The position numbers and the translations under genes are program-made. Below, one piece after another: positions 6,138 to 48,770 of a stretch of DNA of 64,000 nt. This DNA comes from an uncultured Acidobacteriota bacterium (GTDB lineage Bacteria; Actinomycetota; Acidimicrobiia; Spongiisociales; ZC4RG35). The notes under the pieces were generated by a model, which did no database searches, was not told the DNA's origin, and was given only the letters and a program-made list of their open reading frames with translations. How positions within the stretch are numbered: position 1 is the first letter of the stretch; every line of letters starts with the position of its first letter. The DNA lies in contig CAWHEU010000024.1 in assembly GCA_963828465.1 (NCBI GenBank), forward strand, positions 1 through 64,000. Reading direction: 5' to 3'.

Positions 6138-6724
6138 CCGACGACATCGCCCGCGTCGACAGCCGCCACGCCGCCAAGCGCTACGCCATTCTCGCCTACG
6201 GGTCGTTCGGGACCATGTTCGACGTCGGCCTGATGGTGATCGGGAGTCTGCTCGTGGGTCTGGCCGTCTCGGTCTTGCTCGCAGGCTTCGACATCGTCAA
6301 CGTGATCCAGGACTTGTCCACCGGGGCGATGCTCGCCTCAACGCTGGTGCTGGCGGTCATCGGCCTCTTCTGCCTCGGTGTCGCCGCCGAAGGGCCGTTG
6401 GGACGGGGCCGGCGTCTCATCGGGTTCAAGCTGTGGGAGGTCGGCTTGGGCCGCATCATCGCCGTGTTCGTCGTCGGCCTTCTCTTCCTCATCGTTCACG
6501 GGCTTATCGACGACGTGGTGGAAGGTCTGCCGTTGCCGGTCACCACCGGGGTGGCCGGGATCCGGGCGGTAGGTGTCGCCGGGATGACCGTCATGCCACT
6601 CCTCGGGGTCCCTGTCGCCCTCGCCGCCCGCTGGTATCCCGATGGGCCGGACTGGCTCCGCTCCACCGAGATCCCCATCATGTTCGTGATATGGGCGGTG
6701 GCGACCATGGCGATCATCTCCTGA
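6134..6724 (+). CDS. Hypothetical membrane protein
   Basis: About five hydrophobic segments; ATGA overlap with glcF. Confidence 0.7.
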   Translation: MTDDIARVDSRHAAKRYAILAYGSFGTMFDVGLMVIGSLLVGLAVSVLLAGFDIVNVIQDLSTGAMLASTLVLAVIGLFCLGVAAEGPLGRGRRLIGFKLWEVGLGRIIAVFVVGLLFLIVHGLIDDVVEGLPLPVTTGVAGIRAVGVAGMTVMPLLGVPVALAARWYPDGPDWLRSTEIPIMFVIWAVATMAIIS

Positions 6725-6727
6725 GCC

Positions 6728-6830
6728 TTTCCCCCGTAGGGGGAGGTGGCCCGAAGGGCCGGAGGGGGATTCTCAGGTGACGATCCCCCCTCCCCGGCTT
6801 CGCCGGTACTCCCCCCTTCGGGGGGAGAAA
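6728..6830. repeat. REP-like inverted pair of double-hairpin units between convergent genes
   Basis: Unit A 6728-6770 and unit B 6783-6830 are approximate reverse complements; unit B recurs at 58762-58803. Confidence 0.75.
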
Positions 6831-6837
6831 TAGGCCC

Positions 6838-7680
6838 TCAGAGCGCCTTCGAGTAGATCTCCGCCGGGTGCACCTCGAAGCCCTCACGCTGCAATGCCTC
6901 GACGCTCCAGACCGTGACCGGGACCATGGCCTCGACCCGACCGCCTTCCCGATCTCGCAGGAGGTCACGCAGACCCTGGAGAAGCAACGGAGCGTCCGGA
7001 GCCGTGGTCGCCAGCCACCGCACCGAGATCCCCTCCTCATCGGCCTCGACAACGACCCATCCCCCGGGGCTCTGATAGAAGTTGTGGGTATTCACGGCAC
7101 GCTCCAGGTCGCCGCGGGATGCCTTCCTCCATCGCCAGCCCAGCGAGATGAGGTCACGCGCAGCATGGGCGAGGTCGCTCTGTGACCAGAAGGTCCAGGC
7201 GGCGTCGGCATCCACGGTGACACCCGGCCGCAGACGCTCGTCTTGTGGCAGACGCCGGCCGGTCGACTCTGGGGCGGTGGCGTAAGCCCATCGGCCGGCC
7301 GGCCGATAGTTCGACCGCATCACCTGGCCGCGGGCGGCCTCGTTCGACTCTTCGATGACGAGTCGGGCCACCAGGGCTCCGTGCGATCTGGCCCACTCCA
7401 CGGCATGGTCGTTCATGGCCATTCCCATGCCCGATCGCCGATGGTCGGGATGAACCCGGGTGGCGCTGAGCCAGGCCTCGGTCGGTGAGAGGAGTTGCGC
7501 CCGTGACAAGGCAACCGGGATGTCGTCGTCGTAGACGCAGACGATTACAAGGGAATCCGGCTCCTCCAGCCAGTCGCCCATCATCGCGGGCACATAGTCA
7601 CCCCAAATGAAAGTGTCCTGGGTCCAGCGCCCGATCGACGCGACGTCCTCGGCCCGGGCCGGGCGGATGACGAACGACAC
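6838..7680 (-). CDS. GNAT family N-acetyltransferase
   Basis: RVHPDHRRSGMG acetyl-CoA motif A; GTG start just after the argS stop. Confidence 0.8.
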   Translation of the reverse strand: MSFVIRPARAEDVASIGRWTQDTFIWGDYVPAMMGDWLEEPDSLVIVCVYDDDIPVALSRAQLLSPTEAWLSATRVHPDHRRSGMGMAMNDHAVEWARSHGALVARLVIEESNEAARGQVMRSNYRPAGRWAYATAPESTGRRLPQDERLRPGVTVDADAAWTFWSQSDLAHAARDLISLGWRWRKASRGDLERAVNTHNFYQSPGGWVVVEADEEGISVRWLATTAPDAPLLLQGLRDLLRDREGGRVEAMVPVTVWSVEALQREGFEVHPAEIYSKAL

Positions 7681-46076: not shown

Positions 46077-46201
46077 GTTCAAGGGAAAGATCCTCCTAGG
46101 GGGTTGCGGGCCGAGACTGTAGTGGAGGCCAATTCCTGTCGACAATCAGCACAACGGTGGGGTCTACCGTTGTATTACCGCTCACGAGGAAGGAATCGCA
46201 C

Positions 46202-46834
46202 GTGCTCGAAGGTTTGGTCGAATGGGTGACCTCGGTGGTCGAATCCCTCGGCTACGGGGGTGTCGCCTTCCTCGTGGCCCTGGAGAACCTGTTCCCGCCG
46301 ATCCCTTCCGAAGTGGTGCTGCCATTGGCCGGATTCGTGGCGGCGAATGGTGAGGCGTCGCTGGCCGGGATGGTTGTGGCCGCAACGATCGGGTCGATGA
46401 TCGGCGCTTTTCTCCTTTATGGCATCTCAGCCGCAATCGGCCCGGTTCGGCTCCGAGCGCTCGTCGTTCGCTACGGCCGTTGGTTCCGGCTCGACGAGGC
46501 CGATCTCGATCGCACCGAGGAGTGGTTCGACAGGCGCGCCAACGTCGCCGTCCTTATCTGCCGTTGTGTGCCGTTGATGCGGTCGCTGATCTCGATCCCG
46601 GCAGGGTTCCGGCGGATGTCGATCATCCCCTTCACGTTCTACACACTGATCGGCAGCCTGGTCTGGAACGTGGTGCTGATCGGGGCGGGGTACCTGCTCG
46701 GGGAGCGCTGGGATCAGGTCGAGGAGCCGTTGGAGCTGTTCAAGAACGCGGTCCTGGCCGCGATTGCCATCGCCGTCGCCTGGTACATCTGGCGCCGAGT
46801 CGTCCGGCCCCGGGTCCGAGGGGCCTCCGGCTGA
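46202..46834 (+). CDS. DedA family protein
   Basis: LENLFPPIPSEVVLP and RSLISIPAG motifs. Confidence 0.92.
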   Translation: MLEGLVEWVTSVVESLGYGGVAFLVALENLFPPIPSEVVLPLAGFVAANGEASLAGMVVAATIGSMIGAFLLYGISAAIGPVRLRALVVRYGRWFRLDEADLDRTEEWFDRRANVAVLICRCVPLMRSLISIPAGFRRMSIIPFTFYTLIGSLVWNVVLIGAGYLLGERWDQVEEPLELFKNAVLAAIAIAVAWYIWRRVVRPRVRGASG

Positions 46835-46854
46835 ACCCGTAACCCTCCCGCCCG

Positions 46855-46982
46855 CCTCGTCTGCGCTGCACGTGGTCGGTCCGGGCCCAACGTGGTGCAG
46901 CCCGTTCGACAAGCTCCGCTCGGTCCCTCGTCCGCGCTGCATACCGCTGATCTGGGGCTGACGGATTGCAGCGCAGACGAGT
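46855..46982. repeat. Two palindromic units (16-bp arms, 25-nt loops) upstream of the DUF559 gene
   Basis: Consensus CCTCGTCYGCGCTGCA-N25-TGCAGCSCAGACGAG at 46855 and 46926; first right arm degenerate. Confidence 0.8.
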
Positions 46983-47030
46983 GAAAACGATGGGGTTGAA
47001 CAACGGTCGGCGACCCACCATGTTGAGGAG

Positions 47031-47948
47031 GTGGGGGATTCAGCCAGTCTCTACCGGATCGCCGCCAGGCAATGTGGGGCGTTCAACATCGTCCAGGCCC
47101 GCGAGACAGGATTTGATCGATCGGCGGTGCACCATCGAATCTCTACCGGCACCTGGACCCGATTGGACGACTCGGTGTATGCCCTGGTGTCGGCACCTCG
47201 AACCTGGAGGCAGACCCTGTGGGCGGCCGTATTGAGTCGGCCCCGAGCAATCGTCACTCATTGGAGTGCCTGTCGTCTCCTCGACATGAGCGACATCCCC
47301 AACCATGAGCCGATGATCCTGACTCCCAGGGCATCGAATACGAGATCCTCGGTGGCGCACATCTACGAATCGGATCAATTCGACCGAATCGCCGTGACCA
47401 CGGTTGACGGACTGCCTGTCACGACCATGCCCGAGACGATCCTGGTGCTTGCCCGAGACGTGAAAGGGCAGGTGCTGACACATGTTTTCGACGAGGCGGT
47501 GGTATCAGGCAAACTCGATCTGAAGGCGATGTCGGCCACCATCGACCGCGAGGCCGGTCGCCGAACACCCGGAACGCCGCTGCTGCGACGTCTGACGTCG
47601 TCGCGGTTGCCGGGCGCCCGTTCGACGTCTTCGTCGTATCTCGAGAGGCTGCTCGAGGTGGTTCTTCACGATCCACGGATGCCCGGATGGACCCGCGAAT
47701 TCGAGTTCTCTCTGGATGGTGTTCCATCGCGGGTGGACTTCTACATCCCATCGGCCCGGGTGGTCATCGAGGCGGATGGCCGGAACTGGCACACCAGATG
47801 GGAAGCATTCGAGTCGGACCGTCGACGAGACAATGCACTCGCCGCCCGAGGCATCCAGGTCCTCCGTTTCACCTACGACATGTTGAAGTCGGAACCGGGG
47901 AAATGCCTCGAGCAGGCGATAACGACCTGCCTCCTTCGCGCTGCATGA
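47031..47948 (+). CDS. AbiEi-like N-terminal domain + DUF559 (Vsr-like) nuclease protein
   Basis: AARQCG, GLPVTT..TI, S.LE, RVDF, IEADG..WH and DRRRDN.L..RFT motifs. Confidence 0.85.
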   Translation: MGDSASLYRIAARQCGAFNIVQARETGFDRSAVHHRISTGTWTRLDDSVYALVSAPRTWRQTLWAAVLSRPRAIVTHWSACRLLDMSDIPNHEPMILTPRASNTRSSVAHIYESDQFDRIAVTTVDGLPVTTMPETILVLARDVKGQVLTHVFDEAVVSGKLDLKAMSATIDREAGRRTPGTPLLRRLTSSRLPGARSTSSSYLERLLEVVLHDPRMPGWTREFEFSLDGVPSRVDFYIPSARVVIEADGRNWHTRWEAFESDRRRDNALAARGIQVLRFTYDMLKSEPGKCLEQAITTCLLRAA

Positions 47949-48058
47949 CGTTGGGCTGGCGACGACATGCTGCAGCCCAGACGAGGACCGTCGATGACCG
48001 CCCTCGTCTGTGCTGTGTTTGGTCGGGCTGCAGCTAACGGAGTGCAGCCGAGACGAGG
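47930..48058. repeat. Two palindromic units (16-bp arms, 25-nt loops) downstream of the DUF559 gene
   Basis: Left arms at 47930 and 48002, right arms at 47971 and 48043. Confidence 0.8.
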
Positions 48059-48067
48059 ACGGTCGAT

Positions 48068-48770
48068 TCAGCCCAGGAAGTCCCGCACCCAATCGTCGGC
48101 CGGACGGGCGAGGATGTCAGGGAGGGTGCCGGACTGGACGATGGAGCCCTCCCGCATCAGGGCGATGCGGTCGGACAGCGCCTCCGCCTCCTCACGATCA
48201 TGAGTCACCACCAGAGCGGTCACCCCACCATCGGACAGGATGCTCCGGGTGTCGACCATGAGACGCTCCCGAAGGGCACGGTCGAGGGCGCCCAGCGGCT
48301 CGTCGAGCATGATCATTCGGGGCTCGGGGGCGAGGGTCCGGGCCAGAGCCACCCTCTGCTTCTCGCCACCGGACAGATCGGTGATCGATCGATTGTCGAA
48401 GCCGTCGAGCCCGACCAAGTCCAGGGTGGCGGCTACCCGTCGACGCATGTCGTTCTCGGGCAGGTTTGCCATGCGGAGTCCGAAACCGACATTCCCGAAG
48501 ACATCGAGGTGCGGGAATAGGGCATAGCCCTGGAACATGAGGCCGAAGCCCCGGAGATGGGTCGGGACCGTGGTCACGTCCTGGCCGTCCCAGGTGATCG
48601 ACCCCGATTCGATCGGCACCAACCCCGCCACGGCCCGTAACAACGTCGATTTGCCCGATCCCGAGGGCCCGAGCACTGCCACTGTCTCGCCTGTCTCGAC
48701 CGTCATGGTGACATCCCTGAGGATGAGTTTCTCGCCCAGGCGGACGTCGATCGACTTTCACGCCCAGCAT
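48068..48770 (-). CDS. thiQ: Thiamine ABC transporter ATP-binding protein (frameshift near 48757)
   Basis: GPSGSGKST, LSGGEKQR and LDEP motifs; removing one A joins ATG 48770 to the ORF. Confidence 0.82.

Follow-up and report, generated by a model that had tools for sequence, protein, structure and literature searches.

A candidate REP/RAYT-like partnership between an AbiEi-DUF559 nuclease gene and its cognate palindromic repeats in Acidimicrobiia

Few non-coding elements are as common in bacterial genomes as repeats of the repetitive extragenic palindromic (REP) type, and to our knowledge the REP-associated tyrosine transposases (RAYTs) are the only enzyme class tied to them so far, mostly in Proteobacteria. 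Here, we describe a different kind of gene that lies among palindromic repeats of its own in a 64,000-nucleotide (nt) stretch of DNA (the window) from an uncultured soil actinobacterium of the Acidimicrobiia (Actinomycetota). The gene encodes a predicted fusion of an AbiEi-type DNA-binding module with a Vsr/DUF559-type nuclease, 305 amino acids (aa) in length, and we refer to the gene and its flanking repeats together as the cassette. The genome holding the window is called G000 (assembly of 3.07 Mb, 92% complete), the repeat type of the window family A, and the gene type of the window subfamily A. We consider the cassette a probable low-copy member of a REP/RAYT-like partnership that is built on a different, unrelated enzyme.

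The REP/RAYT system of Proteobacteria, or REPtron, is described in the parts of the source papers available to us as a gene for an enzyme, usually in single copy, with cognate palindromes on its flanks (PMC3116915, PMC3337134, bioRxiv 10.1101/2022.05.22.493013). This hallmark, an enzyme gene flanked by cognate repeats that are also dispersed in the genome, was found at our locus, and the likeness extends, as far as those partial sources go, to intergenic repeats that often form doublets, to a separate repeat family for each gene lineage, and to mostly vertical inheritance with losses. However, the enzyme is a predicted AbiEi-type winged-helix module joined to a Vsr/DUF559 nuclease instead of an HUH/Y1 (IS200/IS605-like) transposase, the units are 43 to 57 base pairs (bp) long with a fixed TGCA-N25-TGCA frame, and the host belongs to the Actinomycetota (Acidimicrobiia). 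The doublets are also tandem, with a period of 60 to 72, whereas those of REPs are inverted according to the same partial sources.

On the DNA-binding side, AbiEi binds two 23-bp inverted repeats 3 bp apart, and the promoter of Mycobacterium tuberculosis Rv2827c carries two tandem inverted-repeat pairs (13 bp within and 4 bp between pairs) from -1 to -131, each repeat being bound by the protein (PMC7319586, in the part of that paper accessible to us). The N-terminal ~190 residues of our protein share sequence and fold with AbiEi and Rv2827c. As in the accessible description of Rv2827c, paired inverted half-sites lie upstream of the protein's own gene as two tandem pairs (23 + 13 + 23 bp there, 57 bp here), and the 57-bp unit may be read as 22 + 13 + 22 bp, the same layout as in that promoter. 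Unlike the case of AbiEi, no AbiEii/DUF1814 toxin partner (PF08843) was found in either adjoining gene or elsewhere in the 92%-complete G000; a nuclease domain is fused to the module instead, and copies of these sites are present again downstream of the gene as well as at other loci of the genome. A full-text literature search, which did not cover subscription journals, returned no published description of DUF559 or AbiEi nucleases with cognate repeats, and the partnership is apparently both widespread and undescribed.

The cassette, its protein and its repeats

The gene is bracketed by four 57-nt units with the core GCTGCA-N25-TGCAGC, starting at 46855, 46926, 47930 and 48002 (start-to-start spacings of 71, 1004 and 72). 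Each is built of a 16-nt arm, a 25-nt loop and a second 16-nt arm, each is itself palindromic, and all four share one orientation. This agrees with the initial annotation, which had reported four palindromes with loops of exactly 25 nt around an AbiEi-DUF559 gene, apart from two deviations from its consensus: unit 1 has a right arm that is degenerate beyond TGCAGCCC, and unit 4 has GCTGTG as its left core. The window holds three exact matches to the core pattern as well as unit 4 with two mismatches. With up to two mismatches allowed, the matches in the window number 8, against a shuffle mean of 2.59, and none of 100 shuffles reached 8; the arrangement is thus well outside what chance would give. 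The features of the cassette and its borders are as follows, in positions of the window.

46855..46911, + strand: unit 1, with left arm CCTCGTCTGCGCTGCA, a 25-nt loop and a degenerate right arm (nhmmer E 2.5e-10; covariance model, CM, 60.7 bits)
46926..46982, + strand: unit 2, the best palindrome of the four (nhmmer E 2.8e-13; CM 64.9 bits)
47031..47948, + strand: AbiEi-DUF559 fusion gene, 305 aa (AbiEi-type module at residues 1-193, Vsr/DUF559-type nuclease at ~200-305)
47930..47986, + strand: unit 3, whose left arm codes L L R A A and whose first three loop bases are the stop codon
48002..48058, + strand: unit 4, missing in G012 (which lacks exactly 72-73 nt there) and G041, present in G044
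46157..46834, + strand: left neighbour gene, encoding a DedA/VTT-domain protein; insertion-site boundary
48068..48706, - strand: right neighbour gene, encoding an ABC-transporter ATPase (labelled thiQ earlier, a name that is unconfirmed)

Units 1 and 2 span -176 to -49 relative to the start codon. Unit 3 supplies the end of the gene, as had been noticed from the sequence before (CTC CTT CGC GCT GCA TGA = L L R A A stop), and the unit form CGC GCT GCA plus stop codon also occurs at the L095, L097 and L099 loci, with homologues 54-75% identical. The location between dedA and thiQ without a transposase holds insofar as the neighbours encode a DedA/VTT protein and an ABC ATPase and no transposase open reading frame (ORF) lies inside the cassette.

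The predicted DNA hairpin stability of the units ranges from z 0.18 to -4.2, unit 1 folding no better than shuffles (z 0.18) and unit 2 reaching z -4.23. With this variation, the core and the spacing are better kept than foldability, and the uneven hairpin stability alongside a kept core and spacing fits half-site binding on duplex DNA. A search of Rfam at E ≤ 10 over positions 46500-48300 gave chance-level matches only. Scans for sigma-70 promoters and intrinsic terminators, which are little informative for this phylum, found none, and there were no terminator-like T tracts.

The predicted protein passes the curated cutoff of DUF559 (PF04480; 37.2 bits versus 20.6), whereas Pfam AbiEi_4 stays below its cutoff (17.1 versus 25 bits), as does MTES_1575 below its own. 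The AbiEi models of PADLOC match residues 5-170 (E 3.7e-26). In an AlphaFold model built from 21 homologues (predicted local distance difference test, pLDDT, 88.8), residues 1-193 superpose on the whole Streptococcus agalactiae AbiEi antitoxin 6Y8Q_A (Z 13.7, 182 aligned; Foldseek match of the predicted structure at E 8.3e-7), and this N-terminal module also matches Rv2827c (1ZEL_A, Z 10.3). Residues 200-305 superpose on the DUF559 protein NGO0050 (3HRL; Z 14.3, root-mean-square deviation 1.5), on the catalytic domain of the homing endonuclease I-Bth0305I (3R3P; Z 13.0) and on Vsr (1CW0; Z 10.6); the initial annotation had ascribed to DUF559 a Vsr-like PD-(D/E)xK fold. A profile search of PDB sequences likewise finds 3R3P and 3HRL. 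In the protein, a DNA-binding module that is complete by AbiEi standards, with winged-helix and AbiEi C-terminal domains, is joined to a predicted Vsr/DUF559 nuclease.

Residues E247, D249, H254, E261, D263 and D267 are invariant across the 21 homologues (41-100% identity), and a HMMER alignment to 3R3P/3HRL suggests that these acidic and histidine residues map onto the catalytic residues of Vsr. The ratio of nonsynonymous to synonymous divergence (dN/dS) is 0.10-0.13 between the G000, G012 and G044 gene copies, and the 305-aa gene is under purifying selection. Searches with Pfam, PADLOC, NCBIfam and fold comparison for an HUH/Y1 transposase returned AbiEi and DUF559/Vsr only. As a side observation, the dS of the nuclease gene between G000 and G044 is 0.15, about half the 0.29 of the adjacent DedA-type gene, while the two genes are similar between G000 and G012; the lower value is a weak hint of an exchange more recent than the flanks. 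Elsewhere in G000, a 197-aa open frame (L005, G000:C25, 2401-2991) matches only the C-terminal DUF559-like part of a family member (family-profile E 7e-14) and is likely what remains of a gene.

An nhmmer profile of the unit finds exactly 10 units at four loci in G000. Four of the 10 bracket the gene, and the rest form three solo tandem doublets.

Family-A tandem doublet between the deaminase and enoyl-CoA hydratase genes (convergent)
Family-A tandem doublet between purC and a thioesterase gene (divergent)
Family-A tandem doublet between tRNA-Thr and holB

The enoyl-CoA hydratase gene beside the first of these doublets is split over two overlapping frames in G000 (L001, G000:C18, 3103-3901), with Pfam ECH_1 positions 134-250 and 8-134 on separate ORFs, and is a single 265-aa ORF in G012; we read this as a frameshift or an assembly error.

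All 10 units have 25-nt loops, and the doublet period is 71-72. GCTGCA-N(10-45)-TGCAGC has 11 matches over the whole G000 assembly, 7 of them at N = 25. Among the distinct family-A units pooled from all loci, 50 of 51 have N25 and one has N26 (the pattern allowed 24-26), and N25 was found in 10 of the 11 exact sites of the genus (15-35 allowed), so that loop length, on which the first proposal depended, does not vary freely. A generic inverted-repeat spectrum (13-nt arms, at most one mismatch) had no genome-wide peak at loop 25, the family being small in G000. What the G000 units have in common is the core CGCGCTGCA/TGCAGCGC only; the outer arms are locus-specific and do not covary, and RNAalifold on the 10 units recovered only the 6 core pairs, the full 16-pair arms covarying no more than shuffles. 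The idea that the outer arms are copied from the local target was rejected, as flank matches of at least 8 nt were found for 6.9% of 58 arms versus 5.4% of 1102 controls. Since this test stayed at the control level, a 9-nt inverted match near the purC doublet was treated as chance.

In a 65-column alignment of the units, G25, G28 and C41 vary little or not at all. Among 50 distinct units, two triplets of the loop are conserved, CGT at unit positions 20-22 and ACG at 36-38. Three pairs of an inner palindrome covary (no more than 6 of 1000 shuffles did as well), and the units show no strand bias of G-T over A-C (134 versus 100). Loops are also conserved between genomes at orthologous loci. The four loops of the cassette, described as unique at first, do differ in sequence, but they are homologous to one another and are not unique spacers.

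Cognate palindromes of the paralogues and repeat copy number

Other family members in the genus have palindromes of their own on both flanks, as the initial annotation had suggested for DUF559 paralogues, and these are of other types, the family-A profile finding no unit beside them. Subfamily B genes (38-42% identical) lie, in G022, G003, G007, G014 and G008, in the interval that separates a response-regulator from a metB-like gene, a site that is empty in G000. At all five of these genus loci they are flanked by TCGTGTGCA-N25-TGCACACGA, with one or two units upstream and one or two downstream. More distant family members have still other palindromes.

We surveyed 80 paralogue loci from named Acidimicrobiia metagenome-assembled genome records, 76 of them with usable flanks. 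An exact word of at least 12 nt was common to the upstream and downstream flanks at 56 of 76 loci, compared with 21 of 300 mismatched pairs, and at 43 of the 76 the palindromes of the two sides had 7 nt or more of arm in common. When TGCA-Nk-TGCA with complementary outer bases was counted in the flanks, there were 84 instances at k = 25 and 6 at all other k (10-40), and none in gene bodies. Longer arms extend inwards from the same TGCA frame, the units measure 43-57 bp, and the tandem-doublet period is 60-72 across families. A REP-like system tied to paired arms at a fixed spacing, as first proposed from the window, is thus supported by comparative tests on sequence. The flank palindromes of L074/L090 (G018), L076 (G042) and L077 (G043), together with a 137-nt spacer of G018, come from unpublished genomes. 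G018, G027, G038, G042, G043, G099 and G100, all unpublished, are also within the genome counts below, to which they add only zero repeat counts and weak gene matches.

Two other families in the window, to which attention had been drawn at 2252 and 6728, are both REP-like and distinct from family A. The first, at 2252-2380, is a ~125-nt palindromic element (AACCTCAGGTT ... AACCTGAGGTT) with an inner 15-nt inverted repeat. Palindromes with ends of the 2252 type flank distant AbiEi-DUF559 paralogues in relatives (L072, L073 and L088, and L076 and L077 from the unpublished genomes), and one occupies the site between the cassette's two neighbour genes in G003; G000 is without an intact gene matching this palindrome. 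The second, at 6702-6863, is a G/C-rich hairpin cluster (GGGGGAGG / CCCCCTCC), and the orthologous site in G003 has a GTGTGCA-N25 unit instead. Hairpins of the 6702 type fill two further G000 sites (on C6 and C4) where G003 has GTGTGCA-N25 units. The slots at gene ends seem to be contested between different repeat families.

The copy number of the sister pattern follows the presence of the gene. Across the 31 genomes of the genus, GTGTGCA-N(20-30)-TGCACAC was found at 34, 20, 18, 14 and 8 sites in the five genomes with a B gene, compared with 8, 4, 2, 1, 1, 1 and twenty zeros in the 26 genomes without one; a reversed control pattern was found 0 or 1 times. In the taxonomic family (201 genomes), GTGTGCA-N25-TGCACAC occurs in 45 genomes with up to 50 copies, and the control pattern in none. 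The high numbers were those of G105 (50), G150 (35), G022 (34) and G213 (29), and in some genomes the copies are near-identical. Among the genomes with at least 5 copies, 25 of 26 encode a family gene at E ≤ 1e-40 and 21 of 26 at E ≤ 1e-90, the exception being a 60%-complete genome, compared with 79 of the remaining 175 at E ≤ 1e-40. These 26 repeat-rich genomes fall in 11 genera, and related genomes are not independent. The association between repeats and DUF559 genes that had been anticipated is present at this scale.

In other genera, going by coordinates, units directly adjoin the gene on both sides in G065, G067 and G135, and for G070, G104, G106, G092 and G122 the list has a unit on a single side, the gene match in G122 being a fragment. 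Of 17 G003 sites, most have their units immediately behind a stop codon, in short intergenic regions, and 8 are doublets with a period of ~60. The G000 sites orthologous to them are for the most part empty or occupied by a hairpin family of another kind.

Occupied and empty sites among relatives

The cassette is polymorphic in the genus. It was found in 4 of the 31 genomes, always at the same site, with four units in G000 and G044 and three in G012 and G041. The G041 gene is broken; we take it to be frameshifted because it is read in three frames. Empty sites between the same two neighbour genes, which had been predicted for relatives, were found in G023, G006, G020, G019, G015 and G007, where these genes are 0-13 nt apart. 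G021 keeps a 30-nt left-edge remnant of the cassette. The tree built from both flanking genes places G021 within the occupied group as sister of G041 (99/98 support), which implies that the cassette was lost there; G044, G023 and G003 branch outside the occupied group in an order that the tree does not settle.

In G044, ~33 nt of the end of the ABC-ATPase gene are duplicated at the left edge of the cassette (score 49, maximum of 500 shuffles 32); the corresponding duplication is not significant in G000, G012 and G041. No target-site duplication is evident at the purC doublet site or at the 17 G003 sites. The purC-thioesterase doublet occurs only in G000, and G012, G044, G021 and G023 have 12-41 nt of unrelated spacer in its place.

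The metagenome comparison used contigs only, and the best runs contain at most 0.37 of the sampled words. A public-metagenome contig without the cassette joins 46838 to 48067 with 54 other letters between, and the same run also holds the gene. A candidate circle junction in run X5 was rejected, the backward joint being a cross-match of unit 4 with unit 2. We also rejected 1.4-3.3 kb gaps between the two neighbour genes in distant relatives as other cassettes, as their ORF translations look ordinary; we take the genes there, judged by translation alone, to be a DUF21/CBS-type protein and a histidine kinase.

At the deaminase/enoyl-CoA hydratase site, the family-A doublet is present in G000, G044 and G023, and ~1.2 kb stands in its place in G012 and G041 (C192). 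The G012 insert (L176, G012:C22, 265-684 and nearby) holds a short ORF whose translation reads as having an HNH-like histidine/cysteine motif, and this ORF may be the leftover of another selfish nuclease gene.

Explanations for the pairing of gene and repeats

A REP/RAYT-like partnership would bring these observations together as follows. The protein of a single-copy gene would pair with its own cognate units, which are also present alone as intergenic tandem doublets. Each unit would consist of two inverted AbiEi-type half-sites at a fixed distance, TGCA-N25-TGCA, so that two protomers may bind one unit, and the upstream tandem units 1 and 2 would probably form an autoregulatory operator as in Rv2827c. 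The binding module would bring the nuclease domain to the units, which it would nick or cut, and in this way units would be duplicated, dispersed or lost, the protein acting in trans on solo units and in cis on the cassette. We infer these activities of the protein, from binding and autoregulation to cleavage and mobilisation, from sequence comparison and analogy. A bolder version, which we hold only tentatively, is that AbiEi-winged-helix and Vsr-nuclease fusions may be a new class of repeat-mobilising enzymes, the actinobacterial counterpart of the RAYTs, in which the protein would act as a caliper that reads two half-sites in TGCA-N25-TGCA and nicks to copy palindromic doublets; this machinery would then count among its relatives the operator-binding AbiEi antitoxins of type IV toxin-antitoxin systems.

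Several observations weigh against a partnership that spreads the repeats. Family A is small and old in G000, the loops of different loci sharing only about half of their bases by our own count, and the G000-specific doublet is without a near-identical source copy in the 92%-complete assembly, so that no recent amplification is visible. We failed to find a consistent target-site duplication or target motif. Within the genus, each gene subfamily keeps to a single place (all 4 genomes with A, all 5 with B), and the gene therefore shows loss and no demonstrable jumps. Solo family-A units are present in 7 genus genomes without the A gene, and many genomes with a B-clade gene are without exact GTGTGCA units, presumably having differing arms. 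Shared ancestry partly confounds the association between gene and repeats, and the covariation of the inner palindrome would also fit a hairpin or cruciform substrate instead of duplex half-sites.

It is unlikely, in our view, that the protein is a regulator only, the units being AbiEi-type operators of which the upstream pair represses its own gene and the others are regulon sites or terminators with no role in spreading. Such a regulator would account for the upstream architecture, which equals the Rv2827c operator in the accessible part of PMC7319586, for the position of the G000-specific doublet between divergent promoters, and for the absence of a transposition signature from our results. 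However, units also lie downstream of the gene and overlap its stop codon, and those of the sister family in G003 lie mostly just after stop codons. Up to 50 copies per genome, near-identical in some genomes, the quick turnover of occupied and empty sites between species, and nuclease residues that are invariant in a gene under purifying selection are also difficult to explain in this way.

Rather improbable, too, is a selfish cassette in which gene and units move together like a homing endonuclease or a transposon, with solo doublets as scars of gene deletion by recombination between units. Dozens of solo units per genome exceed the scars expected from single-copy genes, no examined doublet site is occupied by a family gene in relatives, and the single genus locus of each gene subfamily and an edge duplication significant in G044 only do not suggest mobility of the whole. 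Nevertheless, the block is present or absent as a whole, the duplication in G044 is well beyond its shuffles (49 versus 32), the cassette dS between G000 and G044 is below that of the adjacent gene (0.15 versus 0.29), and exactly one doublet would be left if unit 1 recombined with unit 3, or unit 2 with unit 4. The nuclease fold is closest to that of I-Bth0305I. The catalytic-domain fold and an EDxHD/Vsr-like motif are shared with I-Bth0305I (3R3P; PMC3239194, as far as the accessible part of that paper describes it), NGO0050 (3HRL) and Vsr (1CW0), but the gene here is intergenic, with no intron or intein and no interrupted target gene, repeats adjoin it on both sides, and its DNA-binding module is of another kind. 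Empty alleles exist.

The units might also be terminators or mRNA stabilisers of the host, ordinary ones of a REP-like kind, and lie next to the gene by chance. They do sit at gene ends, and in G000 such slots are also filled by other, unrelated hairpin families, but such a coincidence is very unlikely when 4 of the 10 units of a 3.07-Mb genome bracket one gene, when flank sharing (56/76 versus 21/300) and the TGCA-N25-TGCA frame (84 versus 6 versus 0) recur across paralogues, when different subfamilies have different cognate arms, and when terminator-like T tracts were not found. Finally, the suggestion that the 25-mers are guides or spacers as in CRISPR, for which a fixed length with variable sequence is the only support, is scarcely credible because the loops have conserved positions and an inner palindrome in common and stay alike between genomes at orthologous loci, because arrays never have more than two units, because no Rfam match was found, and because both unit pairs gave no blastn match among 50,697 phage records.

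If the REP/RAYT-like partnership is true, the enzyme-plus-repeat lifestyle would have evolved more than once. It would account for many of the genes in Actinomycetota annotated as hypothetical AbiEi-domain proteins or very-short-patch-repair endonucleases, and for intergenic palindromes there, and it would provide a directly testable protein-DNA pair with a strict spacing rule.

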